A stretch of 46,535 nucleotides of DNA, counting the filler, from Streblomastix strix (taxonomy: Eukaryota): the NCBI GenBank assembly GCA_008636045.1. It is 2 parts of 2 records of this genome, joined end to end, with 100 filler letters (N's around TTAATTAATTAA, not from the genome) between each part and the next. Parts side by side here need not be neighbours in the genome. Positions count along the whole stretch, not along the records: positions 1 to 23,224 come from SNRW01000295.1; 1 more part is not named here. One strand, 5' to 3'. The notes beneath the pieces were generated by a model. That model did no database searches. It was not told where the DNA came from and saw nothing but the letters and a program-made list of their open reading frames with translations. This document shows, in pieces, positions 3,193-40,296 of the stretch. The translations under genes were made by a program, and so were the position numbers. Within the stretch, counting starts at the first letter, position 1; the number at the start of each line of letters is the position of its first letter.

Positions 3193-4396
3193 GAAGAGCA
3201 GCTGCGATAGTTTTGTAAAATATAAAAAAAAATCAGAAATTATTCTAATTTTGTAGTAACGACAAAATAGAAAATTAATTATTATAATATGAATATTTTC
3301 AATGGATTGTTAAACAAAAAATTATAATAAAACTTGGTTTATATTGGAAATTAATCAAAATTGATTTTCTCGCTCATAAGATATGGATTTGATTAGGGCT
3401 GGCAAAAAATCTCGGCCATGCCCGGAAAAGCCGGGTTTTGAATTTTATTGACCCGGTTTACCCCGGCTATCTAATAAAATTTTATAAGAAAAAAAAATTT
3501 TTGAAAAAAATTTTTTTAATTGAATGTTTTAACTAATAAAATTATTATATTTTTTATTTTTATTTTATATATGTTTGAATTCTTATATATAATTTATAAA
3601 ATTACCTCTCAGTTTGGAATTAGCATTTTTTATTTTTTGCCAAATTGCGTTGAATACGACCACCAAATGTTAACATTTTCTGTTTAAATATATTTACTAA
3701 CATGATTTATATACATTTTCTCAGAAAATAAGTATTTTTTCATTATATACAAGGTTAAAAAGCAAGGATATTTTTATGAAAGAAAAATAATGACTACGTT
3801 GAATAATAAAATGAAATCAGACAACCATTTCTAAAGAATTGAATTTTGTAATTTATTAATTCAAATAATAATAATAAAATTGTAACATATATATAATGCT
3901 AAAATTAGTATTAAAATAAAATCTTGTCGTAGCTCTAATCTAATCATAAATTCTTTCTTTAAGTTAGCAAATATAACTTATAACAATAAATGGAGTGAGA
4001 ATAAACAGAAACAAATTAGATTAAACTATTCACACTCCATAAAATAGGAGAAATAAAATAAAATTAATTCCTGGTAGCTCGCAATTTTCAAGAATTATGC
4101 CACCATAAATATATCATACATATATTGTTACATCATACAAATATAAAATATAGAGCTAGAAACAGCAGCGTATGACCGGCCCGGAAAAACCTACAGATAT
4201 CCGTTTTAGGACCGGACACCGTTTTAGGGCCGGACACCCATACTGTCTTGAAATTGCGGAGGTTTTATGTAGTTCTCCAAACCTAGAAGATTTTAAGTAT
4301 TTATTTTTATAGAACAATTATATTAATAAGTAACTAACATAAATAAATTTAAAATGAATGTGAAATGTAAATCATTAAATGGATAATTAATTTTTT

Positions 4397-5615
4397 TCAA
4401 TTTTGATGCAACTCTCCAAGAAATAGTTCAGCCATTCTAGCATTAAACTCAGCTTCATCGATTCTTGCTACATATCTGCCATCAATTAATTCAGACGTGA
4501 TTGCTGCTCTTTTGAATGCTGAGCGATTCTGTGAAGGTGTTGTTGCTGCTTCCATTGCTGCCACGAGGCGTGAGATAGTTTGTGCCTAAGTTCTTACATC
4601 TGAATTTGCATTAGCCTTTCATAATTCCTATTTTAGTAAAGCAAATGTAAGCAAATCCTCTACCTAAAATGCGTGGCTACTATGTGGAGGAATAAATACA
4701 GATCTTATGCGAGCGTCTGCAAATATTTGCAAGGTTTATTCTTTTTTATTTGCTTTATGATTATCCATTAACAAAACAGCTTCTTCATTTTCTCCCAGCA
4801 TTGTCGGCCGTAAGGAATCAACGTACGGAATTAGAACGTCAATAATCCAAGCCCTGAAGATGGCAGAATTTACGTATCCCTTCGGTCGTGTACTATTACA
4901 ATATAGACATTAAACCTATGACCTGTAGAATGTAAATCAGCATCTAGTATGACTCGTTTTGTAACAACAAGCGGTGGCAACGTATCGCAGCATAAAGTTA
5001 TACCAGGCATAACGGTGTGAAGGTTACCATTTCTTTTGACCTTATAATGCAATTACTGGTTTGTTGATCCTGCAGTTACCAGCATAAGCTTTGGTTTTGC
5101 ATCTGGCCAATCTTGTGAATCGGATTTTTCAATAGCAGTAATTGCACACGTTTGTTTGCCTGCTACATAATTGACGAGATCGGAATGATATTTATCGCAG
5201 TCCAATCGATTTACTTCCATCTTTCCATTTTCTCGAGGGTTGCATCATCTTTCAACAACTTCATCATAGTGACGGCAGAGAAAACTCTCAACGAATGCTC
5301 TTCCAACTTACGCATGAAATTCATCCATAATATATGTAATGAATGCGGAATATATATACGATTTGCCCATTTCAAATTATTCAATTAGTTTCGCAGTCAT
5401 TATACCTTCATCATAATCGGTAAAACGCTTTCGATTGTGTTCTTCTCATTTGACTTTCCCTTTTAGACCCGTGAGCTCATACAATCGAGATTTTTTTAGC
5501 ATAAAGAGCTCCTCATGCATACGATACGAAAATGTTACTTCGAGCAATCACTATTATACAATGACAGTTTTCCAATACCTTAACTTTTCGTGATGTTTTG
5601 AGGTCAAAACTCCAT
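4397..5615 (-). pseudogene. pogo-like DDE_1 transposase, degenerate (frameshifts and stops)
   Basis: ITAIEKSDSQDWPDA (degenerate NxDESG), HTVMPGITLCCDTLPPLVV, EAVLLMDNHKA and FIPPHSSHAFQVEDLLTFA; the N-terminal region resembles a CENP-B/Tc5 HTH. Confidence 0.85.
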
Positions 5616-5630
5616 GATTCAAGCCAAAAT

Positions 5631-5843
5631 GGTCGTTCTGGATAATTAACCTTATTTATCAACGATTCTAGCATATTTTTATCATAATTTATACACTTTG
5701 TTCAGAATACTGGGAATCTAAACAATTATTTGAAAATGGAAAATTGTGGAAAATCAACGCTTAATATCAATGATTCTAACACATTTTTATCATTATTTAC
5801 ACGCATTGATTATATAAATTACTAAGAAACAAATGCCAAAAGC
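5631..5843 (+). repeat. Left terminal inverted repeat of the pPolB element
   Basis: Reverse complement of 13277-13491 with few mismatches. Confidence 0.92.
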
Positions 5844-5867
5844 GCATCAATTCCAAAAAAAATGAAA

Positions 5868-6546
5868 TCAATCAGAACGTTGAAAATATGGTTATTAATT
5901 AGCTTTTCGATAATTAACTCCAAACATGTGTTGCATAATTTCTTCAGATGATTTAGAGGGAAGTGCATTTTATTTTCGTAATTACTCTATAAATTTATCA
6001 TGATCGGACATCTTAGGTTCATTCGTTTGAATAATTTTATTATATATCATTGCATCAACCAAAGCGTAGATATTTCGAATGTAATCTCCAAGCAACTCAT
6101 GATCAATAAAAGCTATTACATTATTCAAATCTTTTTATTCTTCATTTGGCACATTCAATAAATAATCGTCACGAAGTTGTTAACATTTTTTATGATCAAT
6201 ACATGATTCAATTCCAAAAAATCCACATAGCACATCACAAGTTGCTTCTAACATTTAGCCCAACTCACTTTCGAATAAAGCTCCATTAACATCTTTAGAG
6301 TCAACTCCTGATGTTGGTTAATTATTTTTGTTATCTTATTATGAATAATGATTAATCAAGAATTTATTTACAGATGATTTAAAAGAATTTTTATCATTTT
6401 ATTCACTTTATTCACTTTAATCTCTTTATTCACTTAATTATTCAATTATTTTTTCCATAATTAATTTGCATCACCAACATCCTGAATTATCGGATAAATT
6501 TATTTTGAGAATGATGTCTAATTTGCTGGATCTATTAATGTTTCAT
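5868..6546 (-). CDS. Hypothetical protein of the pPolB element (5' part probably frameshifted)
   Basis: Open code-6 frame ...PTSGVDSKDVNGALFESELGQMLEATCDVLCGFFGIESC...QHMFGVNYRKANQQPYFQRSD-TGA; no motif recognised. Confidence 0.5.
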
Positions 6547-6862
6547 TTTAATTTATATTTAAGTATATTTCTAGCGATTTTTAGGTAATACGTCTAAATA
6601 TAATCTATCACGTCGACGTACAATACGATGAATTAATATATGTATATATTTATTAATGTTGAATGATTTAATTTAATCGAGTGCAGGGTTGTCTAACATG
6701 AACTGTCTAATCTCTTCAGGTGATGTTAATTTTGATAAATTCTATAATATTTCTAATAGGTATTGAATTATTTGTGACATATTTCGAAGCTATAAAAATT
6801 CTAATATTAATTATCATAATCAACTTTTAATCGTCTTTCTTAACTTTTTATCAGGTTCAAAA

Positions 6863-9800
6863 ATGGCTAGAAAATATTTTCTAATTTCTGAAGTTCGTGA
6901 TATGCTCAATCAACTTGATGTTCAATATGATCCTAAATCAACCAAACCAATAATTGAATAACTATTACTACAAACAATCAAAGCATAAGGTTACAATGGA
7001 ACAAAGAGTAGCATTACTAAGATAAGTGAGTTTGTTCGCAATACTGTTGCAACTAAAAATTAATAAAATTACGAACAGAATAGCATCAAAAATTCCGCCG
7101 ATGGTAATGATACAACTAGCAACGAAGTTGCCGCCGAAGGTAACGATGAGACTAATGAATATGATGATGAATAAGAGTTAGTATAATTATAATAATTAAG
7201 AATCAAAGCAAAATAAGAATTGAAACTGGCCACAGAAAAATTGGATGAAATTAATAAGTAGATTGAACTTAGATAGTAAGTGACAAGACTATAGCAATGG
7301 AATAATCAATTAGCTATTGATAGCCACTAACTCAATGAGATTATGGCTATCAATCTCGTCAAGAAATCTATGAGAAATCGTTAACAAATCAATGAAGCAA
7401 AGAGATAACTATAAGAGTTAAAGGATAAATAAGTGTAAAAAATTAATGAAATATAATAATAGAGAATCAATGATATGAATATAATCAATAAGGACTATGT
7501 AACTAATATAAGAGCCTAGTTAGTTCACAATTTAGACTTGATAAAACCAACTTAAGCAGCTAGGAAAATCCAATGATAATATTAACGATATAAACAACGA
7601 AAAATAATAAACCACTTCATTAAAGATCTCAGTAATACATTCTAGCAAGTGAAACGAATTAGAGATGAAAGATTATCAGATATTAACAATAATAAACTAA
7701 CCGAAGAAGAATACACAATTAGATAAGCAAAATTAACTGAATCACTACTCGGATTCTATAAAAATAAATAATTAAAAGAACCTGATCTCAAATTCTCTAA
7801 CGAATATAACGCTAATATTGATGATTAGCGCAAGGCATTTAGGTTTTTTTAGTCTGATGATTTGAAACTATTTAATGAGATCCTAATTGAAACAAGAAAT
7901 AGATATAGAGAATAGAATGAGGTTGATCTTACTGGGTTATCTGATGGATCAGCATAAAGGAATAACATATAAAATAGAGAACCATATCATTCATATTACT
8001 TTAATAAATTTACTCACATTAAATAATTCGATGATAAACTAGCATAAGCACATGAATTACATAAACATAGAAAACATAAGATAGCTGTGGATTTCGGAAG
8101 CATCTGGTAAACTATTGAATCGACTCATACCAAGAAGGGAATCAGAAACGACTATAGCTACCATTACTATAAACCATCATTAGAAAATTCATATAAAAAT
8201 TACCCAATAATTATACGAGATAATGCTTCACTTAAACAATTCAAAGATAGAGTTCATGATATGATTTACGAAGATTAGTCACCTCTTCACTAAGAATCAA
8301 ACACTAGAAAAGTTGCACTTTATTCTTTTGTTATTATAGTTTATAAATTACCACTTGGAACAAAATTATGACCTGAAGTATAATTGTTTAATGAGCATGA
8401 TTACACTAGATCAAATGATTGCGATTATAATATTTGTTGGTTCATCGCTGCTTCATTTCAATTATATCCTGAAATAAATTAAACAAAAACCAGTATCGCT
8501 AATGCAATTGAACTATTCCTATAGTTTAACGATCAATTTCATAAAGATGAAGGAAAATTAAACAAATAATAAAAATAATTGTTGAAAGAGTGTGATGGAT
8601 TCAATTAAGATACGGATCTAGAAAAATTCCTGTAATGCTTCAAGCTAAACGTAATGACTTATGAATATGATCACTCTGAAAAATAATTCAATAAAACTAA
8701 CGAATATATTGTTAACTAGGAGTGTGTAACTACTCATATTTTACTAGCTCAATTATCTATTCAAGGTGATGAAAATCCATAATTTCATGCGATATTAATT
8801 AAAAATATTGATCGAGTAGTTGGTGGATACTTATGTAAGAAATGCAATCAAAAATTATTCGATAGGTCTAGTGATAATTTCAGTACAGAATTGAAGAAAC
8901 ATATAGAATCATGTAAGGGACCTGATCAAATGAAGCATCCAAAACTGGATAAATTATCATAGCCATTTATATCATATCTCAAATCTAATAAAACTATTCA
9001 AAATTTATTCGCGATAATTAAAACAAAGCAATTCCCAAAGGATAATGAACATGGAGTAAACGGTATACTACAAACTACAAAAAATTATATGTGTATTGAT
9101 GCAGAAACTGTTGAAGATTAAGCTTAAGATGCTGAGTCAATTTACGCATAACTCAAACCATTATCTATAGTTATTAGCACATAAATTAACAACAAAATTT
9201 AATCAAAATACATCGATATTCGAACATAAAATTTCATGAACAAATTCATAGAGTAAATGTATGAGCTAGCGAACTAGGTTAATGAAACAAATTTAGCATG
9301 TAAACGGCTTGTCAAATTCGATAACGAGAATGAATAATAAAAACATTAATAAAAGATTCATCAAGTAGCAATCTTCGGATTCAACTCAAAGAAGTTTGAT
9401 TTTAACCTCATATTTCCATATCTAGATTAATATCCTAAAATCATATTCAAAAATAACTCATATCTCGGGTCAACTACTCAACAGAAGTAAGTGACAATTA
9501 GACATATAGATTATCCTTTCGAGCTAGTGTTCAAGGATGTTCTTACATTTATCCCTCCGACTACTCCAGATAATTTTGTTCATAAGTATGGTAATGGAAC
9601 TAAACTAACTAAGGGTAAATTTCCACATGGATCTTTCAACGTACTTAATTACAATCAGTTCTTATCATCAACCGAACCATTTGAACATAAAGATTTTTAT
9701 AATTAAATTAGTCGGAAAAAAGTTAGCGATAAAGATTATTAAGAATACGTTGATGATTTCAACAGTTTCGATGAAAATAGGAACAGAAAATTTAAAGATA

Positions 9801-11937
9801 AATGGTCCTATCTGAAGTACTATAATATTCATTATGTAGAGTGCATGTTTGCTCCAATCAATAATTTAATAGAATTATATTGGTAGTAAGATATTTATAT
9901 GTTATCTTAAATATCCTTATCTCATATTGCTAACTCAATTAAGTAAAATTATGTTTGGAAAGATTTCGACATTAATGCTGATTACAACATAGAAAACGAC
10001 CGTAAAGAATATGAATTTTATTCAGAAAAAATGGTGTTAGAAAGTAGAATCATATATACAACAGGATAACAAAGCAGGAAGAGATACAACAAATAACGTA
10101 ACTGCTGATGATATAGATTGGGCTAATGAATTGAATCCAAATAAATGCTGCTACTGCTAAGCTAAGTTCACTAATGTAAACATGCCAACTCATGAACGAA
10201 TAGACAACAACATTGCTCACACAAAATATAACTGTAAACTGGCTTACTAACTATGTAATTCTTCACGATCAAACAAAGATGCTGATGTGGCGAAATTAAT
10301 GATATAGATGTACAAGTACGCTATTGCTAAGAATCTACCTATGACAATTGATGATGAAGAAGTATATTGGTTTTTACGCAATTCTATCCATGGTGGATTA
10401 TCATAAGTATTCCATCAATATAACTTCAAAGTACTAACCCACATAAATAAACTAAGGTATAATCCTGAAGACAAAAACTTAACCGCTTACGATTAAGATT
10501 ACATCATTACGCATATTCTAGATCTTGATTTCAACTCATTATATCCATGCGCTTTCTGTGGAATTTATAATAAAAATAATCCGTATAATGGATATAAAAT
10601 GTATATGCCCGGGAGAGTTACTATGCACATTAAAATACGTGAAGCTAACGACTAAGTTTATCGAGAAACTAAACGAAAAGAAATGATGAATATCATTAAC
10701 TCAGAAGATCGATTTTCTGAAGAAAAAGGTTAGTTATTCATAGCATCAGTTAAGGGTCATATCGATAAGAATCACATTAATGAACACTTTAACTTTCCAC
10801 CTATCTGGAGGAAGCGAACTTATAAAACTGATAAGAAAACAGTTGGTAAATTCACTTATGAAAAAATGTAAAAATAAGGAATGTCTGCTAATAAATTAGA
10901 AACAAAATTAACTTCATTGCTATCAAATCATGATGAATTCATGTCATTTAGCTCATACTACCTTTGGCTATTGATTGATTATTGTCATTTCATTATCGAT
11001 GATGTTGAAGAGATAGTATTATTCACCAAACATACCGCGTTCAAATCATTCGTAGAAGTGATGACTGAGAAACGTTAACAAGCAATGCGAGAAGGTAATT
11101 AAGCTAAATAACTTTATTTCAAAAATATAATGAATAGTTCAAATGGTGCTGATGGATAAAATAATGAGAAATTTGATAAGATTGGTATATTCAATAAATA
11201 ATAAACATATCTAAAATAATTGAATAAAAGCTTCACTAACACTCGAAAGATTTGCGAAGACCGATATATTGTATCAATTAACCCTGATTCATTCTCTGCT
11301 CACAAGTGCTTATAAGAAAGTATCTTCACTTAAGACAATTCTAAGTTCTGGTTTTTATGCTTCATTTACTTCTTCTTATGCAAGTGTATTGATACGGATA
11401 GAGTTCAATTCTGCTGCATGAATACTGACTCCATGTACTAAGCAATTAGTGGTTCAACTATCGAGGGGTATAAACAGTAATTCAAATATGAAATTAAGGA
11501 TCAAGAATTCTGGGAAAATCATTACAAAGAGTGGTTACCATGGGAAGGATGTTCGATTGCTGAAGAAACGAAACTACTAGGTTGTGCTATTGAATTATGG
11601 AGAGAAAGCATCATCTGTTTAGCTCCAAAATGTTATTCTGCAATTGATGGGGAGGTTGATGATGTAATAAGAATGAAGGATGTTAATGAAAAGAATAGTG
11701 GTTTAAGAAGAGATGATTACATTAATTGTATTGAGAATAATTCAAATGTATCAGTTCCAGTTACTTAAATTTAATTGAAAAAATCGAGTGATGTCAATGG
11801 TAAAAATAACTAAGTCTGCATTAACAGGAGTAGTTGATAAAATGATAGTAATTGATGGCGATATTTCCAAAGGTTAATCATATCCATGTGCACCTCAAAT
11901 TTTTGGAGTTGATGCTTCTAGTTATCTTTATATTTGA
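6863..11937 (+). pseudogene. polB: Protein-primed family B DNA polymerase (Polinton-type pPolB) with long N-terminal region; disrupted by in-frame TGAs and a frameshift near 10030
   Basis: ExoI CIDAET (about 9090), ExoII GFNSKKFDF, FKDVL, KGKFPH, SIHGG, motif A DFNSLYP (10527-10547), motif B KNIMNSSNG, motif C NTDS (11421), LAPKCY; CxxC...HxxxC zinc finger at about 8835-8915. Confidence 0.93.
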
Positions 11938-11952
11938 TCATTTATTTATTTT

Positions 11953-13289
11953 TCAAAAGTAATATCGAACTCTTATAAATAAACATTACGTAATGAACCA
12001 ATGTTTTCGCTAACTTTTTTACAATAGTATATCGGTAATTCTACAATAAACAATTATTAGTATTATGATATGAATTATCTTAATAATTTACATACCACGT
12101 TACCGTTTCTATATTCTATGAATTCTGCTAGCTCATTAAATTATCTTCTTCTTTTCACGTAAGAGAAAGCGGTCTTTGATAAATCAAGATGAATCATCAA
12201 TATGTTACCTTGTTTAAAATCTAATAGTCCTTCCGTTTTTTATTTTTGTTTAATAACATTTGACTCTTATTCCTTAATTCTAATGAATGCACCTTCAATA
12301 TCTGAGTTATACTATATTTCCTCAGGTGAAAATTTATTATCATACGATAGATGTGGTGTCTTGTTATTGATATAGACTAACTGTTACAATTTTTCAGGAT
12401 CAGCAAAATCATTATTGCTTGTACCAAATCCATTACGAATAGTCTTAACTACTGAGTCAACTATTCCATTGTGTTATGTGAACGGTGATCCTGTGAAAAA
12501 GCACTAAATTCCTTACTCTTCTAAGAACTATTGTACATCCTTTCCTTTGAATGATCTTTCATCATCTCCTCTGATATTAGTTACATACTATTAATTTATA
12601 AGTTTCTTCAGTGCAGTAATCAATTGAGATGCTGATTTATTGATTATTGGAAATACTATCAAATATTTAGTATTAACATTAATTGCAAATAAATAATTAA
12701 CTTCTCTATTTTTGCTATTTCGTTCAAACACAAGATCAATCTCCCAAGAACCAAATTAGTTACTAAAATATGGTCTATAAAATTACTTCAGTGGTTTTAT
12801 CTAATAATCTTAGACTCTTTATTAAATTTTCTATGTTTCGACATTATTGATTTTAGCATAAACTTTCACTTTAGTTCTCCAAGGAAATTTAATAATCTTA
12901 AATGTTTCATTTTCCTAATCACTTACTTACTCTTATTATTCATCCTCATCTTTTAATTTTATCAGTTTAGGACGACCACTTTTCCCACGTTTTCGTACAT
13001 TATATTTCATTGCTTCTTATACGTAAATTTCATACTACAATGCAGTAGATTTTTCTCCAATAATTACTTTCTCCGCGTTATTCAATAACACTTAATATTC
13101 TCGTTTGTTCTTAAATATTTTGAGTTGTGTTATGAAATTTGACAGATTCAACAATTCCTTTGCTCTAGCTAGACGTGTGATTTATTGCTATATATTTAGT
13201 GTGTCATTACCAGACTAATCTGTATCCGCAAAATAATATTTCTTAATAATATTGAATAAAATTTATTGCTCGGTCAGCGCTTTTACCAT
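11953..13289 (-). CDS. Retroviral-type (RVE) integrase of the pPolB element
   Basis: RPYFSNQFGSWEIDL, YLFAINVNTKY, IRGDDERSF, FFTGSPFTQHNGIVDSVVKTI, NKTPH; an N-terminal GRPK AT-hook-like motif. Confidence 0.88.
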
Positions 13290-13491
13290 TTGTTTCTTAG
13301 TAATTTATATAATCAATGCGTGTAAATAATGGTAAAAATGTGATAGAATCATTGATACTAAGCGTTGATTTTCCACAACTTTCCATTTTCAAATAATTGT
13401 TTAGATTCCCAGTATTCTGAACAAAGTGTATAAATTATGATAAAAATATGCTAGAATCGTTGATAAATGAGGTTAATTGTCCAGAACGACC
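13277..13491 (-). repeat. Right terminal inverted repeat of the pPolB element
   Basis: Reverse complement of 5631-5843. Confidence 0.92.
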
Positions 13492-13619
13492 CATTAGCTC
13501 ACACAATCGAGATTTCTTTGGCATAAAGTGCTCCTCAAGTGTTCCATACGAAAATATTATATCTTAGTCAGTTTTAATTTAATATGCTCAACTGCTAACA
13601 TTTTACGCTCTGAACTCAT
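13492..13619 (-). pseudogene. N-terminal fragment of a second, diverged pogo transposase copy
   Basis: IFSYGTLEEHFMPKKSRLCELMG matches TFSYRMHEELFMLKKSRLYELTG at about 5466-5540. Confidence 0.75.
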
Positions 13620-14124
13620 GGAAATAAATTGAATTTATCAACCCAAAGATTTTTGTGAATTGATTTAATTTATTTTATATTAAAGTAATAAGTTAATAAT
13701 AATCAAAGAATTTTTTATTATTTAAATTAAAAAATATGCTAATTGTTTGGTTTTAAAACGGTGTACGGGCTTAAAACGAATATCTGTATTTTTTGACAAA
13801 AATTCACCGGGCCTAGATTTGTTTTAAATATAATTTCATCCATGTTGTAATGTTAACATAGAAGGTTTAACATGAAATATATTGTATTAACATTATTTAC
13901 AGTCCGTAAACCAAGAAATTTTATTTTGATTTAAATACAATAAAATGAAAATATTTTATTGGTTCTATTTAGAATAAACATATCCATTAGTTATTCAGCT
14001 AATAATGTGAAATGTATTTCATATATTTATTGATCTTTGATCTAACTGTTTGATTTATTATATTGGGTTAATAAATCTATTTATCATTAATACAATTATT
14101 AAATCAGCATTATAGGTATATTTT

Positions 14125-23324: not shown

Positions 23325-23729
23325 ATATATTATTGCCATGGCCCCAAGCCGAGAGAGAAATCATTGTGTGGATAAAGGCCAAAATAATTATTTATTTATT
23401 TATTTTATCGCTGTTTTACGCGTTTTTGAGGCCTTAACGGTTAAGTTAGCCCATTAATTTAGCTATTAGTGAAGCAAGATTCCTTGCACTATACTACGTT
23501 TTTCTGGCTATAATTACTCCGAATTAGAGTAATAATTAATTTTCAAAATTTTTTAAAAAATAAACATGGGTGCAAATTACCTTTTCTCTAACTGAAATTA
23601 ATATGTTGGACCAATTTGGTTCAGACCCCAATTAGTTCGTCGGCCGGAATTCGGCTAACACCGTTTATTTTTATTAAATGGAATAATTTATCACTGATAA
23701 AGTAAATCGGTTAATTAATATGTTGAATT

Positions 23730-24737
23730 ATGAAGGAATTTATTAATAACATTAATTACTTGTTCAACGAACACATTAATATTATTGATTAATTTCAAGG
23801 TAAAAGTATCGAATAATGGAATAAATTATATGTAGATGAATACAATACCAAAAATATATAAAAGTAAAAATAAAAATATCATGAAGTTAATCAATATCAA
23901 TATTAACCCTGTGAAAAGATTTAAGATTATAAATTAAAACCATTAGCAAAATATTAACGTCCGTACTTTTCTCCACAGTTAAGATCATGGGAAATTGATA
24001 TAGGATTCTTCAAATAATTATTGTTATTATTTATTATCAATGTCAACATTAAATATTTTATTATTTATCCAATCCGAACAAAAGAGAAAAAATAACTAAT
24101 TCCAGCTCTAGACTAGCTAATATAATCCGAGTACGTGACAATTATTAGATCAGATGGGGAAGCATCATTTGGAAATAAATAAATAAGGGATCTATTAATG
24201 AAACATAATATATAATATTTTTTTAACAAATCCCTATTCACGAATAAAAATAGAGTGGTAGATAGCGTGATAAGAAATATGAGGAGTAAATTAATAAATT
24301 TACAAGTATCTAATCATGTATTATAATAAATAGCTGACGAGTATAACAATACCAAGCATAGTTCATTCAACAATAAATATTCTCCGACATAAGTAAATGA
24401 ATCACGTGATTTAGAAGGTAGTTACATTCGTCAAAAGTAAAAAGAACTAGAAGGTAAAATTAATCTATAAAGAAAAGATCAATTATTAAATTTACAAGTA
24501 GGTAACATTATTTTGATCCACTTAGATTTGGCTAAAACAAAACATTAATTTGATAAATAACGTAGAAACTTTAATGAGCTTGCTACCTTTATTAAATATA
24601 ATCATGGTAATGTAGTTTGTAAGCTATTGATGTCCTATAAGGATATAACTGAAGTTGAAGTTCCTAGTTATTATACTAAATTTATATCTAGTGACCTTGA
24701 TTAATTGGAAGATAAATTCAAAAAATAATTTTTATGA
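23730..24737 (+). CDS. Retroviral-type (RVE) integrase, homologous to 11953-13289
   Basis: RPYFSPQLRSWEIDIG, IINVNIKY, IRSDGEASF, NRVVDSVIRNM, YNNTKHSS, GNIILIHLDL, RRNFNELA; open frame of 336 codons. Confidence 0.9.
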
Positions 24738-26328: not shown

Positions 26329-27483
26329 AAGTAGTAGGCAAAAGAATCTCACTGCTTTATGAAATTTAAACTTAAAAATTACGGAAAAATTAATAGTGGA
26401 TATAATCAATCGTAATAAAAATGAAAATAATTTTTCGATAAAATGAGTGAAAAATAATTAATAAAAATGATTTATGGATAGGATTTATTGATATAATTTT
26501 TATATAGGATTTATGAAAATAATTTATGGATGTGAAATGAATGAAAAATGAAAAATGAAAAATGAATAGGATTTATTATAATAATTTATGGTGATCGCTA
26601 ATGTAATAAGGTTATTTTTTAGGTTAAATTACATTGGGCAGTGAGATTCTTTTGCCTACTACTCTTGGAAATTAATTTATGAACTCAATCTTACATAGTT
26701 ATTTAATTTTTGAGAATTTTTTAATGATTAGAGATTTTATGTTTATTTGTAGTGAAACAGTGTAAGAAAATATGGGGGACCTTCAAGGTTTTCAATGATA
26801 TACGATGGATGAAAAATGATTAATCATAAGGATGAATGATAAAAAATATCTTATACGGAAAATATAAATAAAAAATTAAAAATAATTGAGGAAATTGAAG
26901 GTGACCAATAGATTCAGAATCACGAATAAGCAACATTTTTAAATTCTTCGTATGTGATATGACCTTAGTGAAGAGTATGAATGAGATATGAAAAATTGAA
27001 AAAATTGATAAGATTTCAATAATCAATTTAAATATTTTAAAAATAATATATAGCCAATAAAAAATCAATATATACAGTAAAAAATAAATGTTTTCTGAAT
27101 GACTTGAAAATTGATGCATTAGTCAATGTTGATACCCTGATCAGAAATATGATGATAAAAGTTAGTAATGAGACTGATGATTCGGTAAAATTAAGCGAAA
27201 CAATGAAAAAGATTAATGGAATGGATAAATGAAGTGAATTGTCCTTGTGTCCTGAGTTTCTTGAGTGTCTTGAATCATAAGCTGACACCTTTGATTCCCA
27301 TCATATTAGACAAAATGCTATAAAGTTAGCGAAGTTGAGAAATGATATGAATTGCCTATGTGTCCGGAATGTCTTGAGTGTCCTGAGTCTCAAGTTGATT
27401 CCTAGGATTCCTGCCATATTGGACATAATTCCTTAAAGTTAGGGAAGTGGATAAATGAAGTGAATTGTCTGTACAAATAAAAA

Positions 27484-27650
27484 ATGGCAGCCTCTTTGAA
27501 AATGGAACACGGATTTGTTTCACCATTAGTAAGTGTGTGCTAGCGGAGTGGATAAATGAAGTGATTTGTCTAGGTGGAACAAGAAACGGAACGGAACAAA
27601 TCCTAGAGACGCCTGCAAATTCTGTCAGCAATCTGCCATAAGCCATAAAT
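27484..27650 (+). repeat. About 165-bp repeat, copy 1 (upstream of primase-helicase)
   Basis: ATGGCAG...TTTGAAAATGGAACACGGATTTGTTTCAC...GCCATAAAT, repeated at 30539-30705. Confidence 0.9.
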
Positions 27651-27702
27651 TAAATAAAAATTTGTTTTAAGAAACTATTTGAACTTTTTATCCGAAAGCA
27701 AA

Positions 27703-30510
27703 ATGGCAACAGAAGAATTTTCAAATGACAAATCAAACTAACAAACAAATGTGAAATGTGAGACACTTGAGAAAGGACCTAAACGTAAATTTACTCGCAA
27801 ATCGAAAGCAAATGAGAAAGCAAAAGAGATGATTGATCAAATGATTAATGAATAAACGAATGAATAGACGAATGAATAGACGAATGAACAAACTATTGAA
27901 GAGAAATATGACTAACACATTCATGAATTACGTAATTAGTATGGAGGAACTGATAAAGAATAGGATGAAAGGCACTATTTAATATATCTATTAGAAAAAA
28001 AATAGAGAGGATAACATATTTCTAGAAGTAATGCAACCATTAGTGAAATTACATATGTAAGAAAAAGATTCGAAAATAATAATGGAACGCATTAACGATG
28101 CTATGATTAACACAGTAAACTATACAAAAATTAGCTAATATGAAGGAAAAAATATTAAATATCAAGGAAATTAATTGATTTATCATTAATGGATAAAAAT
28201 AATCTATGTGTAGTTGATATCGATATTCATAAAGAAAAATCAATAGAAGAGATTGATAAAATAAGATAAAATCTAATTGATTCTCTTCCACCAAATGTAG
28301 GTTTAGTAAATACTGCTCAAGGATGATTACGTATCTATTGCAATAGAAATTTCTATCTATTATTTTTTAATTATAATATAAAAGTAGCTATAATAGATAG
28401 TTTTGATATTGATGTATTTGCATAAATGACTAAATATAAAATTGAAAATGGATAAGAGACTAAAGAAATAGTATAGAATGGAGTTGTTGCTCCTATCACA
28501 GCTATTCGAGAAACTAAAAATAACTAATGAGTTACATTCAAGTATGAAGCAGTTAATGATTGGGAAAATACATCACATTTAGCGAGCTTGAGAGAGATAC
28601 TTGACAAATGGAATATAGATATTGAGATGTCATATAAAGATTACGCATAACAGCAACATGATAGAATATATGGAGTACAATTAAAACATGATGGAAAAAT
28701 TTAATAAATGAATGAAGAACTTGCATAAGTATGTGTTAATGGATTGAAGAATCTTGATAAACATAATTATCTTTAACCAATCAATATGGAAGAATCTCCT
28801 CTAAGTACATTCTGTGGATTATATGGAATCAGTAATGAATCTATTAGAACTGAAGGATTAGTTAACATACGTAAATTCAATAAGCTAACTGCAAACGCTG
28901 ATAAGAACTACGGATAAGCTTCATCTAATGGTGAATGCAAACCAAATCCATGGATTCTAACAAAAATCTTAAGATACCTTAATAAAGACTACTATGAATA
29001 GATAATTAAACTATTATTGAAAAAGAATTATGAAGCAAAAAAGAAGGAAAAATAAATATTAATTAACAAAACATTGATTCCAAATAAAATTGAACTAACT
29101 GATGATTTCACTCTATTTGACATGTAAGAGAAAGCAGCTAATGGAGAATATGAAAATGAACAATAAATTGCTATGGATTTAACTAGATTATTAGTCTACT
29201 ATGAAGGCGATACTGAAGATATATATGCGATTAAAGGATATGATGCTATTTGCGATACATAAGTTTTATATCATAAGTTAGAAGGAACAGTCTATAAATA
29301 ATTAGAGAAAATTAATATTATATTTCAAGAATAAGAAAATTGATGAAAAAGATAATTCAAAACCATTAACTGTAAAATATATCTTTAAAAAAAATATGCT
29401 TCAAAATTTGTTAAGAAAGGATGCAAATTCATTAGTGAAAATCCAAAGATTCCTACTGAATTCTAAGGATATAAGTATATGAAATTAGATACAATAGATT
29501 ATGAATGCTTGCAGATGTTCTTTGATTTGTTTAAAGAATCTATTGCTGCAGGTGATGAAAGAGTCTATGAATACATCCTTAATTGGATGGCATGGTTGAT
29601 ACAAAATCCTGGAAAAAAGTCTAGAGCTGCAATAGTGTTACAAGGTAGATAAGGAATAGGTAAAAATAGATTCACTGATATGATTGCTGAACTAACAAAA
29701 TCGATATAGTTTCTCTAACATTACAAATTTAGATGAATTCACAGGAAGATTCAATTTAGTAGTTGAATTTAAAATGTTTGCAGTACTGAATGAAATGATG
29801 AATTATAATGACTCAAAGAAAAGTGTTGCAACAGTAATGAAATCAACTATTTCTGATTTAACTATAAGAATTAATGAAAAGAATTAGCTTAGAAGAACGG
29901 CTGAGAATGTAATGAATATAATCTATGTAACAAACGCTGATATGCCTGTATAGTTGGACACTGATGATAGACGTCATTTAGTATGCGCTTGCAAGACTGT
30001 TCATTAAGTGAGTGAAGAATATAAAGAAGATGTTGAATATTTTAATGAATTAAGCTAGAGCTATACTTAAGAGTTTTATGAAAACTTGATGACATTTCTA
30101 CTTAAAAAAAGATATTTCATAGTTCAATCCAACATTAATTCCAATAACTGAAGCAAAGAAATAATTGATAAATGTTAGTTGATCTCCAATAGATGATGTG
30201 ATTATGGAATATTATGAGCAGTTCAAATAAGGAATTCCAATAGCTCTTGTAAATTTAATGCAAACCATAGAATTGGTAAATGAAAACCTATAAGAATGCG
30301 ATGATACATAAATGTTCAGAATATACACCAAGAATTAATGGATTAAGAATTAGAGTGTACAAATTAATTGAGGATTAATTGAGATATTATGATAAAATGA
30401 TGAGTGAAGAGGATATCGAAACATCTAATGCAAAATACTAGAAATATAAGAAATCAATTGAAAATAATGAGTTCATTGATTAGATAGTATAAGAGACAAA
30501 AGAAGAATGA
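27703..30510 (+). pseudogene. Prim-Pol (AEP) primase fused to a D5-like SF3 helicase; several frameshifts and stops
   Basis: LCVVDIDIH, VNTAQG*LRIY (degenerate TxxGGxHxY), ILNWMAWLIQNPGKK, Walker A GRQGIGKN (29644-29667), FAVLNE, NIIYVTN, DDRR. Confidence 0.88.
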
Positions 30511-30538: not shown

Positions 30539-30705
30539 ATGGCAGGCACTTTGAAAATGGAACACGGATTTGTTTCACAGATAGTATGTGTGTGCTAGTG
30601 GAGTAGGCGAAGGAAGTCATTTGTCTAGGTGGAACAAGGAACGAAACGGAACAAATCCTACGGACGCCAGCAATTTTTGTCTGCCATCTGCTATATGCCA
30701 TAAAT
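30539..30705 (+). repeat. About 165-bp repeat, copy 2 (downstream of primase-helicase)
   Basis: Direct repeat of 27484-27650. Confidence 0.9.
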
Positions 30706-30928
30706 GAAATTATTGATGTGATGTCTTGGAGATGTGACCATTATTTTTGGAAATGAATGATTCCATGATAATTGAAAATCCTTCAATATATTTGTGAAAA
30801 TGAGGGTGGAACAATTTTAAAAGCTGATTATTTGGATGTCTACCATAAATGAATTCATATGGTAGTGCAATTTAGGTAAAATATCTATTAATTGTTCAAA
30901 TTAAGATTCAAAATGAAGGATTATAAAA

Positions 30929-31071: not shown

Positions 31072-31342
31072 TTCAACCCCTGATATAAAGTTTTATAATT
31101 ATTATTAGTTTTCATTAGCGCAAAAATAAATCATATTCATTGATTATATCGATCAATTATATCGCTAATTTAAAGTAAATTCTGTACGTTAGTTATGATA
31201 GTTTTCTAAAGACGTCGAATCAAAAGGAGTTACAAATCGTTAGCAGATGCACGGAATTTCTATCGTTGAATTCTATATTTTTATTAGGCACGGGATCGTT
31301 ACTCTGCGGCAATGCGTTCGGCTTCACATGCTCACAAATAAA

Positions 31343-32134
31343 TCACGCTCTAATCATATTCAGTAATTTTATAATTAATTTACTAGTATTATCATCTAAA
31401 TCTAAAGTGTAATATTATTGTTTTGTTCGTTAATTATCGTTAATAATCTTATAAAATCTATTCAAATCTATCTCTTGTATCTCTTCTCTGTAAATAGCAG
31501 CATAATCACTCTTGATCGATCGTTTATTCATTTTATCTCCAAAACTAATTCCTTTAAATATTTCATTCAATAATTGTTTTTCTTGCTTGTTATATCTTAA
31601 CGCAATTGATAGAGGAACAAATGAGTTTGATAATTAATATATATTTTCCAAGAATAATAATCGACCCATTCCACTGTTCCCATCTTCATGCGGATGAATA
31701 CGTTCGTATAATAAATAACACGCAAACAGAACAATAATCTTATTAGATTGATCATACTCATAAACGAAGTCCAGTAACTATTACAGTTCATTTGGATCGA
31801 TTTTTTCATGTTAAATTCCAACATTAGCTGCAGAAATTATTTTTGAATTATTCTTATTATTAACATAAACATTATAATGCCTAAATGTCTCTCTATTGAA
31901 TAGTGCATAGTATATTTCATCGATCTATGGCACTTCATTACTCTTCAGATAGTCAATTGCATCATTAATTTTACCTTTTGATAATATATACTATTCAATA
32001 CAGTTAGTATCCATAATATCCTTATACATTATTCTATCTGCATCAATCGTATCTATTACCTTTCCTATTTAGTCATATCCATCATCATTGAACGTTATTG
32101 TAAATTCTTTAATTTTTATCGATTATCTTGGCAT
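31343..32134 (-). CDS. Fic/Doc-domain protein
   Basis: FRHYNVYV followed by YERIHPHEDGNSGMGRLL (31661-31696), versus consensus HPFxDGNGRxxR; open frame of 264 codons. Confidence 0.85.
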
Positions 32135-32328
32135 CTTTTAAATAATAAATGAAATGATATTCGTTATAGTTGTTGGAACTTCTTTAGTGTTCATCGCTAT
32201 TGCAAATATTGGCTTGTTTCTTATTGCTGCATCTGCATATAATACGCCAACCAAAGAAGAAGAAAAGACTCCAATAAATTTATCATTTTATTCGTGACTA
32301 TTAGACCTGTTATTTTTAGTTATAATAA

Positions 32329-32922
32329 ATGTTATAGAGTCGATCAGTATCACTATCTGAAAGAATATCATAAAAAGAGGTAATGTCACCACGTTTATCC
32401 GTATCAATAATTCCAGCAATTGTAGAAGTTGGTTCTCCATTCGAAAAGGAATAAGATAAAGTGTCTGTTCAATCTGTTTGTTCAAGAAGAAGATCATCCA
32501 TATTTGAAGAAATAATAATACCTGATCCATCAGTATGTCGATGGCTACTTGAAATAATTTGTGAAGATGAACACATAACCAAAGAATCAGCACGTTTCAT
32601 ATTATCTGAACATTAATTAATAAGAGTAATTGCATATACATTTGATGAAGTGGAAAACTAAGTTGTACTTAATTCAGATGATGAAGGATGCTGGGGTTAA
32701 TTTATGCACGATGGCACTAGAACATTAACAGATATAACAATAAATAATGTTAATATTCTTACTCTAAATATCGATAAAGTCAATCTTCTCAAATATTCAT
32801 ATAAAATATGCTTATAAAAAATAGGAAAAATAACTAGTATATTAGATCTTGGAGATATCTCATCAAAATTAATGTTTGCTGCAAGTAAAAGATTAATAGT
32901 AGTTCTATCACAAATTCATTGA
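32329..32922 (+). CDS. Hypothetical viral protein (197 aa)
   Basis: Uninterrupted code-6 ORF MLQSRSVSLSERISQKEVMSPRL...LSQIH-TGA. Confidence 0.6.
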
Positions 32923-32949
32923 TTGATCTATATTATTTTTGGTAATTAA

Positions 32950-35820
32950 ATGGCTGATGCAGACTTACACTCACTAGATGTGCTCATAAAACATGATGAA
33001 ATTTTGTTCGAAAACATTAGATATAATTCAATTAGCTTAGTTGAATAGGTCGAAAATACTAACAATCAAATCAATATGATAAATAATGCGCCTACACATG
33101 ATGTATATACTAGACCTGAAGCAAATGAAATATTTGATACAAAAGCTGATAAAACTGAGACATATACTAAAACAGAAACCGATACTCTACTTGATGCTAA
33201 AGCAGATAAAACTGACACTCATACTAAAACAGAAACAGATACTCTACTCGATGCTAAAGCAGATAAAACTGACACTCATACTAAAACAGAAACAGATACT
33301 CTACTCGATGCTAAAGCAGATAAAACTGAAACTCATACTAAAACAGAAACAGATACTCTACTCGATGCTAAAGCAGATAAAACTGAGACATATACTAAAC
33401 CAGAAACAGATACTCTACTCGATGCTAAAGCAGATAAAACTGAGACATATACTAAAACAGAAACAGATACTCTACTCGATGCTAAAGCAGATAAAACTGA
33501 CACTCATACTAAAACAGAAACAGATACTCTACTCGATGCTAAAGCAGATAAAATTGACACTCATACTAAAACAGAAACAGATACTCTACTCGATGCTAAA
33601 GCAGATAAAACTGAGACATATACTAAAACAGAAACAGATACTCTACTCGATGCTAAAGCAGATAAAACTGAGACATATACTAAAACAGAAACAGATACTC
33701 TACTCGATGCTAAAGCAGATAAAACTGAGACATATACTAAACCAGAAACAGATACTCTACTCGATGCTAAAGCAGATAAAACTGACACTCATACCAAAAC
33801 AGAAACAGATACTCTACTTGATGCTAAAGCAGATAAAACTGACACTCATACCAAAACAGACACAGATAATCAACTCGATGATAAAGCTGATAAAACTGAA
33901 TTAATTGACTCATATTCCAAGACAGAGGATGATGCTCTCTTATTACTGAAAGCTAATGTTGCAGATTTAACGAATTATGTTGATTTAACTTCTGCTCAAA
34001 CAATAACAGGATAAAAATAATTCGGAGTAATTAGTGTTTCCAGCATATCGAAATTGAGTAAAAATGATGCTTCTATTCTTCTTGCAGATGGAGGAGATAT
34101 GTTAGTTAGTTCATTAGTGACTTAATCATAATTATAAGAAGTTAGAGATATTGCTACAGGAAAGTCAAAAACATATGTATTCTCAACATAAGGAGAGTTG
34201 AATGACTGGATGGCTGATCAGGAGAATGTAGCAAAACTAGTAATTGGAGAAAATTTATATATTGTTGATAAAGAAGTTACTGATTATTGGTGAGATGGAA
34301 CTAACTTAAAAGTACTAGAAACATAATTACCTGATATGAGTAATGTTATCACAACCCTAGGAACAGCTACTGGAGGAGGTAATGCTATTATTGATATATC
34401 AATTGATGGAAATATACTAACACCAGCGAAAAATAAAAATTTTTTAGATGCAGATTACGACCAAAGTATTAGTGGTTAAAAGATATTTAATATAACAATA
34501 CATTCAGTTGGAATCATGGTTTAAACATATGATAATTCAAGTATCGTTTATGCTGAAGGAGGAGTTCGATCAATTGCAGATATTTATAGTGCTTCATATT
34601 ATAAATCGGAGGATGATGCACTCTTATTGTTGAAAGCTGATAAAATATAACTGATTGATTCATATACTAAAGGTGAAACAAATAATCTCTTAAATTATAA
34701 AGCAGATACTGGAGTTTCTTATACTAAAGGAGAAGATGATGCACTCCTATTACTTAAAGCTGATAAATCAACAACATATACCAAAACAGAAACTGATCAA
34801 TTAATATGATAAGTTGATATAGGAGATGTTGATTTGACTGATTATTACAATTAAACAAAAACTGATGAATTATTAGGAGAAAAAGCAGATACAACCGAAC
34901 TATCTAATTATGTTACGTTAGGTACTTCATAGACAATAGCAGCAAACAAGACTTTCAATAATGCTTGTAGATTCGTTAATTCTATAGATGGAATGTCAAC
35001 AGTTACTGGATCATCATTTATCAAATAAGGTGCAGATAATTCTGTCGTATTACTTGGAGCTGGTGGCACTAAACCACTTTCAGAATTTACTGGTAATCCA
35101 ACTGATTTATCAAATTATTATAGTAAAAGTGAAACTTATTCAAGAACAGAAACAGATAATAAATATGTTAGATTGGAAGGTTCATTTCAATAAATAATTA
35201 AAAGAAGGTTAAAATATGTAAGTTCATTTGGTTAAACATATGATGAGACATAAGATCCAGTTGGAAATACATATTTGACTTTGTCAGAAATTGATGCAAA
35301 ACTAACAAATTATGTTAATACTGTTAATAATTAATCAGTAAATGGAACTAAGATATTCAATGCAAATGTTAATGCAACAGGATTTGTGAAAACAGGTAAA
35401 GATGATACATCAGTCTTATTGGCTGGAGGGGGAGATTTTGGTATTATCATCATTTGGAGGATTAGAATTAGTAAATATTACTTATACTAATGATGTGGTT
35501 AATCCAACTTCAATAATGTAACTAAAATGTTATAGATATGGATCACTTATCAATTTTTATGGTTATATATATATATGGGTAATGGAGTAGGAGCATCTGG
35601 TGCTTCAGTTGCAGTTTGCACACTTGCATATGCTGGATTTCTAAAGTATTAATTTTAAGCAGGTGATATAGTTTTTGCTGGCTCTGCACCACATGTTGCA
35701 AATTTCAGATTTGGAACTGATGGAAAAGTTACTATAACTATTAGAACCCTATCTGGAACAGCGGGTTTAGCTGGTTCAGCATCAGCATATATCAACATTA
35801 CATATCCCGCAGCAAATTGA
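32950..35820 (+). pseudogene. Phage-tail-fibre-like virion fibre protein; 2 in-frame TGAs and 3' frameshifts
   Basis: 19-aa repeats DAKADKTETYTKTETDTLL, QTITGQKQF/QSVNGTKIF units, FVKTGKDDTSVLLAGG, and a C-terminal YRYGSLINF...FGTDGKV...YINITYPA head. Confidence 0.75.
33136..33900 (+). repeat. 57-bp coding tandem repeat, 13 copies plus a partial
   Basis: GATGCTAAAGCAGATAAAACTGAxACxxATACTAAAACAGAAACAGATACTCTACTC repeated. Confidence 0.97.
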
Positions 35821-37554: not shown

Positions 37555-37884
37555 ATGGCACCGGGAATATTCAGTAAGCTTAAAAAATTAGTCTAGGTAG
37601 TTGATAAAGGAGTCAATTGGATGAAAGATAAAGTAATTAAACCAATAATGCCCATAACAAATGCACTTCTCTAATCATTGGTACCAGCAAGAAGTATGGT
37701 GGCGAAAAGAATTAGTGCAGGATCATCAGTGGTTGATGCTTTATTTGGATCAAATAAATTGTAATCAAAATAATAGTTCAGATAAGATTTTAATACATTC
37801 AGATAAGATGATTTCTTAAGGAAAAAGGTTCCGATTGATATAATAAGCAACTACATAAAGCTTATTGGAGATGAATTTCAGTGA
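37555..37884 (+). CDS. Small protein with N-terminal amphipathic helix (adenovirus protein VI-like candidate)
   Basis: MAPGIFSKLKKLVQVVDKGVNWMKDKVIKPIMP; lies immediately upstream of the MCP. Confidence 0.6.
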
Positions 37885-37937
37885 ATCATTACTCGAGTTA
37901 ACTAACATATAATCAGATTATTTTTGTGCAATTATAC

Positions 37938-39659
37938 ATGAATCGCTAGCATATGAAGATTCATATTCATAATTCACAGGAAAACTTGTAAATTATTGTG
38001 AACTTGTTAAAGACATTCGCAATTCAACCATTTTAGAACGATAGGGAGCACCATTTTTCAATCAAAAAGATCAAACCAGAATCATAAATGCCGTCATTAT
38101 TTGATAAGGAAATTATCATCAGTTTATCCGATTCGGATCATGATATAACGCAAATGTAAAATTCATTCTTTACATTTGAATTTTAAATATACCTGTTATT
38201 CGATAATTAATTTGATAAATTTGATGATGTTTATAAAGAAGATACTTTCATATTTGTTGGATCGAAGAATTCTGCTGAATTGATTAAATAATATGTTCTA
38301 TATCATAGAGGAAAGACCATTGATGGATCTCTCTAGAACGAAGCAACAACCGAGTCATTTATTTATAATACTATCAAACCAAAATCAGAGAAAAATAATA
38401 ATTGATTTGTCCATTCACTTTATGAAAGTGTACGTAAAGATGACATATCCTGCTGCGGTAGATATCTTAGCATTAAAGAAATTTCAGAAGTACTAGCTCC
38501 ATAAACTTCATCTCCATATGCTATGCCTGGTGGCTTCACAATATCAATTCCCCTGGATGATTTACTCATTTTCTTTGCTTTCTCCGAATATCCTAATAGT
38601 CTATTTGGTGATCTCAAAATTTAATTCAAGATTAATCCAAACGCATTCGTATTCTGCTAAGTAGATCCAGTACTTTCAATGGCCAAATATTATATAATTA
38701 ATAAAGATGAGTTATTGAGCTCAGGTCAAGATAAGCTTAAGGATATTGATCTATTCTTCCGCAACTGGAGTCTCACTTTCTAATATACTAATATGTACAC
38801 ACAAATTGGATGCACTGCTGATTTGATAACTGGAATACGTGCAGAAGAGCTAACTCTTTCAGGATTAAAGAATCTCGTATGTGATATTAAACCAGTTACA
38901 GTATCCGTAAGAAACTATATTATAGAAGCTGTAACAGCAAATATGTGTGGATATAAAGCATCAGAAACTTTTCTCAATCGTGTATGTTAAATTTATTAAA
39001 GTCGTCCATTTGTTGTTCCTGTATAACGTATTGAATCATGGGTATTTCCAAGTGCAACTTCATCTGCAGGAATAAAAACTATTTAAAATATATCTCTTTC
39101 TCATGTTACTGATATATGCTTATTATTCTCTAAAGATGCTAGACATGTTACTTGTTATGAAAATCCGTGCTATTTTGATATATAAATTAACTCAATGAAT
39201 AGAAATTTCTCAGATTTCCCAAAGAACACTCTTAATGAATAATTCTTCACAATGCAATTATAAGCTAATAATCTCGATAATATATTCGAAGCATGTGATG
39301 AATACGAAGATCCACTCGCAACTCCAAGGGCTAATAAAACACGAAGATACAATCCAGTTAGTGATTATACATCATTCTTCATCACAATATAATGTGAACG
39401 CAATAGCAACGGTGCATTAACATTTGATGGATTAGATTCTAAGAGCTAGAATACTACAATTGAACTTAAAGGACATCTAATATTCGCTGAAGAAGTAGAC
39501 AGTTATTATAATGTTGATACTAATGGAAAACATCCACCTCCTCCAATTCTGTGCACCGTACATGATACTTTCTGGCTAATCAGTATTAGAGATGGAATAT
39601 CTTGCTTATACGATACAACTCATTCATTTGATTAAATTATTCACTAGGTTACTGCTTGA
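37938..39659 (+). pseudogene. Major capsid protein, double jelly-roll PLV/Maverick type; 5' part frameshifted
   Basis: About 570 codons, beta-rich: FIFVGSKNSAELIKQY, ISIPLDDLLIF..YPN.LFGDLKI, RPFVVPVQ, C-terminal LTFDGLDS; flanked by penton-like and ATPase genes. Confidence 0.78.
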
Positions 39660-39688: not shown

Positions 39689-40063
39689 ATGCCATTTGGT
39701 ATGACCTCAGCTCCTAATGCAAAACGTTTCGTAATATTGTAGGATAATTGTACGTATGTTGATGGAATGTTTAAAGTACAGTTGCCTTATGATTTTGTTA
39801 ACTCAAATAATCAGCTAAAAATAATATTCGTATAGTGTAAGATTCTTAATACTCCTGATATTGTTTCAATTCATTCAACATTAATATAAGAATAATAATA
39901 TTATGATAGTTTTGTAAGGTTTTGTAATGAAACAAGTACAATTATTGAATTTTAATAAATGAATCATTAGTCAATTATATTGATTTGGTTCAAAAATAAT
40001 ATGAATCAGAAGGTATCATAAACGGATATAAAATTTGTTCTTGAATTGATGTTACAATATTGA
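39689..40063 (+). CDS. Putative minor capsid (penton-like single jelly-roll) protein, 124 aa
   Basis: VQLPYDF, IVSIHSTL, ILIWFKNN...KFVLELML; directly after the MCP. Confidence 0.55.
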
Positions 40064-40229: not shown

Positions 40230-40296
40230 ATTTTTAAACATCAATTAATAATCATTCTTTTCAGTTTTCTAATTCAACTTTTTTACTAATCTGAAA

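Follow-up and report, generated by a model that had tools for sequence, protein, structure and literature searches.

We analysed a 46,535-nt stretch of DNA from Streblomastix strix (GenBank assembly GCA_008636045.1; hereafter the window), in which two genomic records are joined through 100 filler letters and positions 1-23,224 come from SNRW01000295.1. At 5631-13491 lies a 7861-nt element enclosed by terminal inverted repeats (TIRs) at 5631-5845 and 13277-13491, each 215 nt long and 96% complementary to the other. Under genetic code table 1, no frame of at least 100 amino acids (aa) was found inside this unit. Table 6 gave long frames, and three genes appeared that constitute all of the TIR-enclosed content and cover ~90% of the unit: an orphan open reading frame (ORF1; 5868-6458, minus strand, 196 aa), a putative family B DNA polymerase of the protein-primed kind (pPolB; 6863-11937, plus strand) and an RVE-type integrase (11895-13289, minus strand, 464 aa). 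The 404-nt spacer at 6459-6862 showed no coding signal in any frame by codon-usage score. We compared the unit by tblastn with frames of at least 60 aa from a second element in the window (23700-46535, hereafter the right-hand virus), including those for the major capsid protein (MCP), penton and ATPase, and obtained only the integrase region and two weak matches (E = 0.009). The unit thus has neither room for nor a match to an MCP, penton, packaging ATPase or maturation protease and, since it lacks virion genes, we do not file it as a polintovirus. A preliminary description of this locus had reported both TIRs, a size of 7.9 kb and no space for MCP, penton, ATPase or protease, all of which held. 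It had also listed pPolB, an RVE integrase and one hypothetical gene; all three are there, with pPolB a pseudogene in this copy.

The TIR pair extended by blastn to 219 nt (95.9% identity, one 1-nt indel), reaching 5628 and 13495, while the second-longest inverted pair in the window was a 65-nt palindrome at the N gap. The left TIR contains an internal repeat with a period of ~108 nt, and its outer end perhaps lies within 5628-5635. At the right end, the final 4 nt of the TIR (13488-13491) are ambiguous, because a match to a host DDE transposon starts from 13488. The exact terminus is uncertain by ~4 nt in either direction. Canonical Polintons have a 5'-AG terminus. The ends here read GGTC, GTTC if the four host-matching nucleotides are given to the host, or AATG if extended; none of these is AG, and the terminus is not fixed. 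We set aside an apparent resemblance between the TIR and the 113-bp repeats at 27214-27571, which scored 47.5-50 against a background of 44 ± 7.7 over 428 windows.

The element is flanked by pogo-like DDE transposons. The left flank (4194-5630, minus strand) is the 3' part of a decayed DDE_1/DDE_3 copy, copy A (Pfam DDE_3 E 8.7e-8, DDE_1 E 9.2e-8), and the right flank (13492-13786, minus strand) stems from the 5' part of another member of that family, copy B. Their TA/CAG ends lie at 4194 and 13786, with DDE TIRs that are 85% alike. Positions 13488-13559 are 83% identical to 5466-5537 of copy A, both stretches encoding the helix-turn-helix-like N-terminus of the transposase, so that the flanks overlap by ~165 nt instead of abutting. 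The flanks derive from separate DDE copies and do not form the halves of a single insertion site. One contig links 5467 to 13491 at a depth of 20, which is single-locus depth and is expected of an intact DDE copy. We found no clean target-site duplication (TSD) of 5-8 bp; the sole symmetric-offset 6-mer pair near the ends was AGCCAA/AGCTCA (4/6) at 5628/13495. Because the flanks come from two different DDE copies, the missing TSD is uninformative about the family. Most simply, the locus would have been rearranged after insertion or joined during assembly, and no TSD is expected either way. In the former case, the flanks would likely have been rejoined between two DDE copies by adjacent deletion or recombination across 4 nt of microhomology, which would have erased any TSD. 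The preliminary description had set GGTC ends and the lack of a TSD against canonical Polintons; a clean TSD is indeed missing, but the contrast is unusable with flanks from two DDE copies and a right end whose last 4 nt match the host.

The pPolB is a single gene of ~1690 codons, though it appears as four ORFs. S. strix gene models 77-82% identical to it start at the same first codon (P0076) and cross both in-frame TGAs and the first frameshift; others cover its end, and the alignment is colinear from the first codon (P0076) to the last (P0096). In the window, the gene carries TGA at 7574 and 8369 and frameshifts near 10026 and 11778, where other contigs lack the extra base. Also missing are three motif residues that its relatives retain, namely Asp in ExoIII, Tyr in motif B and the first Asp of motif C. 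The pPolB of this copy is dead, and the window copy would no longer be able to copy itself.

As a family, these polymerases have ExoI-III, an HNH-type insert and motifs A-C, with 198 aa separating motifs A and B. A profile search retrieved 1785 homologues at E 0.001 or better. Pfam DNA_pol_B_2 matched neither the window pPolB nor 29 closer homologues, and its cut-off was passed by 6 of the 29 profile homologues scanned; by transitive homology through these, the family is assigned as protein-primed. At 8429 there is a Cys motif and at 8783 a His motif, in the position that a vOTU domain is given between terminal protein and exonuclease (PMC11071308); by analogy the two motifs may mark a vOTU-like domain. 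In the pPolB tree, the gene falls in a clade with four S. strix proteins (SH-aLRT 100); another S. strix clade, with ~52% identity over this region, is its sister. By genetic code and sequence identity, the host is likely an oxymonad, S. strix or a near relative.

The HNH-type insert (10140-10270), which is PacI-like and lies between exonuclease and palm, occurs throughout the polymerase clade (homologues P0075-P0251). PDB sequence searches with pPolB gave nothing under E 0.1, the best PDB match of the family profile was PacI (weak, E 0.58-0.68), and Pfam HNH was matched below its cut-off by 2 of 29 homologues. In two polymerases of the clade, P0117 and P0119, a primase-polymerase-like domain follows at the C-terminus (in P0117, Prim-Pol E 0.006); the second of these is recorded under Methanobrevibacter and probably stems from a mis-binned contig. 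The locus tags of P0076 and P0121, two polymerase genes that belong to the mini-element clade, are consecutive on an S. strix contig of 14,440 nt, which suggests adjacent or nested copies. Two pPolB motif patterns had no match in IMG/VR. An IMG/VR alignment search returned 10 loci in which the HNH stretch alone matched, and a JGI metagenome scan returned one locus (L001) with a different Polinton-type polymerase; neither was used.

The integrase runs tail-to-tail with pPolB, the two 3' ends overlapping by 43 nt, and its putative start codon lies inside the right TIR. It is 0.6 bit short of the Pfam rve cut-off (E 1.6e-7, 32.0 against 32.6 bits) and has weak profile matches to retroviral integrases. 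Its frame is open, and the Asp residues of the triad D185-D242-D278 (D-D35-D) are invariant in 31/31 aligned homologues. The third catalytic residue of such enzymes is usually E. Across the gut-protist integrase family (alignment A3, with the window genes at 11895-13289 and 23727-24737) it is Asp and not Glu (31/31), and in a literature search the term DD35D was not found among the top matches. We detected no relative of the integrase in IMG/VR, by either protein or alignment query.

As the preliminary description had claimed, the integrase is homologous to the one in the right half of the window at 23727-24737 (42% over 301 aa, E 4e-72). In a quick tree, it is placed within an S. strix radiation (95) as the sister of a 14-row clade (99), on an end branch of 0.73 and with a best identity of 51%; the right-half integrase pairs with another protein elsewhere. 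The pPolB and integrase phylogenies that had been proposed as a check place each enzyme on its own branch, and the two window integrases on separate ones.

ORF1 is coding by codon usage, with a score of 0.120 against -0.114 ± 0.041 for shuffled sequences (0 of 2000 shuffles as high); the same score picks the correct frame for three control genes. We found no homologue among proteins of 107-343 aa, nor in five genomes. Its AlphaFold2 model is all-helical and of low confidence (pLDDT 38), with no jelly roll seen. ORF1 might be an accessory DNA-binding or replication protein, which is a guess.

Contigs from three runs (X1, X2 and X3; two studies, X3 being the second) covered all or nearly all bins of the unit. 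In X1, the 23 bins at 5705-13547 had a median depth of 1212 (range 601-2676), compared with 51 for the right flank's outermost bin; near-identical contigs (0-6 differences) of the window locus had depths of 18-26. Depth is not copy number, and we took it only as "many". Copies 7-13% diverged bridged three of the four internal junctions: TIR to ORF1 (X1 record 2, 44 differences in 344 nt), spacer to pPolB start (X2 record 9, 60 differences, and a joint at 6412-6558 at depth 383) and integrase to TIR (X3 record 23, from the second study). For the pPolB-integrase junction the evidence is indirect, consisting of a joint at 11891-12065, X3 record 21 (overlap region only) and the S. strix gene model P0081, a polymerase 81-86% identical to the window copy whose last exon is the antisense of the integrase 3' end. 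Among 281 compared proteins, 22 were at least 62% identical to the window pPolB, at least 17 of them filed as S. strix. None of the 22 had an extra segment matching the window virion genes and two had integrase-derived segments, a weak test because gene models seldom fuse neighbouring genes. These data suggest that the 7.9-kb unit is likely a family with many related copies. The distinct mini-Polinton family envisaged in the preliminary description gains support from these copies, from the junctions common to diverged copies in two samples, and from the separate integrase and pPolB branches.

More distant relatives carry capsid genes. A scan of GTDB genomes gave 12 loci on contigs filed in bacterial metagenome-assembled genomes (MAGs), which look like eukaryotic-virus contaminants. 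In locus L086 the polymerase, integrase, ATPase and MCP stand in a row, and L020 and L018 have polymerase, integrase and an MCP homologue. The L018 protein scored 0.96 against jelly-roll capsid clusters in the atlas and matches the window gene at 37875-39659 at E 2e-38; by eye, this window gene also resembles an S. strix MCP in the supplement of PMC10120064. Across 16 whole contigs with this polymerase, MCP was present in 3 and ATPase in 3, most of the others being too short to tell. Since distant relatives have the same polymerase and integrase beside capsid or ATPase genes, the element looks like a reduced Polinton. The four contigs of MAG G001 that link the two genes to virion genes (L018, L020, L086 and L092) carry them in tandem, in contrast to their tail-to-tail order in the window. 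The element is therefore likely, judging from these comparisons, a reduced member of a capsid-coding Polinton lineage of gut protists in which the two genes were turned tail-to-tail.

Five bacterial MAGs (G001-G005; loci L012-L023 and L083-L104) contain eukaryotic-looking Polinton contigs, G001 alone giving 25 integrase, 34 MCP and 41 polymerase matches. On two contigs of these MAGs, an integrase is tail-to-tail with pPolB and no capsid genes are visible (L103:339-6003 on a 7749-nt contig; L021:1-3749 on a 4.9-kb contig). Their integrases group together (100), and they are possibly independent short elements of another gut protist. We did not count L103, which has another pPolB type, or L021 as further mini elements, there being no TIR on their contigs.

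We consider it probable that the window element is one decayed member of a capsid-less Polinton family, 7.9 kb in length and likely multi-copy, in an oxymonad-like host. The family would have arisen from a capsid-coding Polinton that lost its entire virion module, and would spread by acting as a self-synthesising transposon. The window element is a candidate for the smallest capsid-less Polinton transposon. In the sense of PMC4405056, a capsid-less Polinton keeps pPolB and integrase, has lost the virion module and exists in more than one copy; this is seen directly in the window copy, and indirectly in others through bridged junctions and gene models. More tentatively, as a possibility close to balanced, the family may be autonomous: a minimal three-gene, 7.9-kb self-synthesising Polinton with a D-D35-D integrase and no capsid or helper, present in tens of copies in the genome of an oxymonad, beside hundreds of capsid-coding relatives. 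The TIRs, gene content, pPolB and integrase motifs and many related copies were observed directly, and onto them we project the steps of the Polinton model (PMC11071308). A linear copy of the element would be released, and the N-terminal domain of pPolB would prime synthesis at each TIR end before being cut off by the vOTU-like domain. The polymerase would replicate the 7.9-kb molecule, which the D-D35-D integrase would insert at a new chromosomal site. Within one nucleus, no particle would be required.

Several observations weigh against a capsid-less transposon family. We saw no second complete TIR-to-TIR copy and no listed contig spanning the unit, among the 21 of 731 loose ends, 15 of 67 joints and 26 of 4276 pieces examined in the contig tables; no listed contig bridges the right outer junction, and neither an intact copy nor a recent TSD-flanked insertion appeared. 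One of the six listed X1 loose ends (5863, 209 nt, one contig) departs 18 nt beyond the left TIR, and a 14-mer taken from it did not match ORF1. TIR depth, by arithmetic on mixed bins, is ~2200-2700, or about twice that of the interior, which fits double placement of TIR contigs and also extra TIR-bearing partners. P0116 differs from the window element in that its integrase piece lies after the polymerase in the same orientation. Among S. strix gene models, neither the integrase (best identity 55%) nor ORF1 has a close annotated homologue. Finally, the AlphaFold models are too poor (pLDDT 34 for the C-terminal half of pPolB, 38 for ORF1) to lend structural support to the terminal protein, vOTU and TPR domains.

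The loose end and the doubled TIR depth would also suit a split (bipartite) Polinton or a satellite, in which this unit is the replication-and-integration half and a separate element with capsid genes, perhaps with the same TIRs, packages it. MCP genes abound in the host, the supplement of PMC10120064 listing 820 for S. strix. This arrangement nevertheless appears unlikely, as the TIR motif occurs in the window only at the two ends of the element and blastn found no TIR match in the right-hand virus or in 120 collected loci. The preliminary description had suggested a satellite of a capsid-encoding relative like the right-hand virus, and this was not supported: the two integrases are on separate branches, and the virus seems to start a polymerase of its own at 46085. 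Nothing marks that virus as a helper, and it does not appear to be the closest kin of the mini element. The capsid-coding relatives of both enzymes (MCP and ATPase, each on 3/16 whole contigs), the dead window polymerase and an ORF1 3' end and spacer that vary among copies (joints at 5780-5966, 6412-6558 and 6587-6860) could instead point to internal deletion from a longer, capsid-coding Polinton bounded by identical TIRs, the short form being a minority or amplified only in trans. We find this doubtful and, if anything, less likely than a split element, as the short junctions are common to diverged copies (87-93%) in two studies, no break point dominates among the listed rows, and a single deletion is insufficient to turn the tandem order of L018, L020, L086 and L092 into the tail-to-tail order seen here.

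The unit might also be an assembly mosaic of collapsed repeat copies, with its size and ends as artefacts. The flanks do come from two different DDE copies, run X1 contains only 0.54 of the words of the unit, and no contig spans it. A mosaic is nonetheless improbable, given that the left outer junction lies within one contig (5366-5720, 6 differences), pPolB is colinear with the independent gene models from P0076 to P0096, and internal junctions recur in other copies; it could account for the flanks and not for the gene content. An integrative linear plasmid unrelated to Polintons, the other origin raised in the preliminary description, would likewise have pPolB, TIRs and no capsid (PMC4405056, PMC11071308). 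It is highly improbable and found no support here, as the unit is chromosomal, has an RVE integrase and lacks RNA polymerase, capping enzyme and helicase, and its enzymes nest among those of capsid-coding Polintons.

The right-hand virus is a decaying, capsid-coding Polinton-like virus. It comprises the integrase (23727-24737), pieces of a D5-type primase-helicase (28531-30151; DUF5906 E 1.8e-11), a Fic-like gene (31343-32596), a fibre gene with 57-bp repeats (32923-35490), the MCP (37875-39659, with TGA at 38403), a penton-like gene (39689-40063), a gene that we take to be KilA-like (40174-40587) and a split ATPase (41594-41872 and 43928-44704). A probable pPolB start at 46085 is cut by the window end; over 93 aa, this final frame is similar to the N-terminus of polymerases in a third S. 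strix clade (E 2e-11). At 26330-26663, a 53-nt inverted repeat (87%) starts AGTAGTAG, and one of its arms lies directly before the start codon of a minus-strand gene, perhaps as a divergent promoter. We did not treat this repeat, which begins AGTAGT, as an element end, as it has no TSD and abuts a start codon. A small basic gene piece at 31140-31355 is 87-93% identical to C-terminal exons of S. strix integrase gene models (P0002, P0005 and others). In other elements it thus lies next to another integrase, and the right-hand region is perhaps mosaic. Around the helicase there are 113-bp tandem repeats (27214-27655) and a 172-nt segment (30539-30710) duplicated at 85%.

Polintons, or Mavericks, are defined by pPolB and a retrovirus-like integrase (PMC5499653). 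The S. strix element has both, with the polymerase gene broken in the window copy, and like the Polintons of the Metamonada MCP group (Bellas et al. 2023, PMC10120064) it holds them between TIRs whose 215 nt fall within the 100-1500 bp of Polintons. It shares genetic code 6 with S. strix endogenous viruses, and both of its enzymes have relatives in elements carrying a Metamonada-type MCP (PMC10120064). Unlike Polintons, it is 7.9 kb long, below their 13-25 kb (bioRxiv 2023.08.22.554363), lacks MCP, penton, ATPase and maturation protease, and has a tail-to-tail gene order and D as third catalytic residue. Its HNH-type Cys/His insert, likened by description and with weak PacI matches only, recalls the pPolB2 class of nematodes and oomycetes, to which a PacI-like HNH was called unique (bioRxiv 2023.08.22.554363); here, the HNH is present across a clade from gut protists. 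Fungal cytoplasmic linear plasmids and transpovirons are also capsid-less derivatives of the Polinton replication module (PMC4405056, PMC11071308). They have no RVE integrase and encode RNA polymerase and capping enzyme or a Tlr1-like helicase, all absent from the window element, one of whose three genes is an integrase.

It has long been asked whether Polintons are viruses or transposons, and capsid-less Polintons as "pure transposons" are an established idea (PMC4405056). The flagship capsid-less case, Trichomonas vaginalis, was later found to have an MCP (PMC10120064). No description of a short capsid-less Polinton in oxymonads was found in the literature searched, most subscription papers and Repbase being outside that search. 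An element too small to hide a capsid gene, with both enzymes and many diverged copies, makes the question testable again. If our reading is true, the S. strix family would be a clean case of Polintons living purely as transposons, now that the T. vaginalis example has a capsid. For protein-primed self-synthesising transposition in a eukaryote, it would also set the minimal complement of genes, and offer a compact starting point for biochemistry. In keeping polymerase and integrase without the four virion genes, the element resembles the capsid-less Polintons known so far (PMC4405056, PMC4028283), which number 9 of the 72 elements in Table S1 of PMC4028283 and span 11,092-42,550 bp. It differs from these nine in size, being 3.2 kb shorter than the smallest of them, at 11,092 bp.

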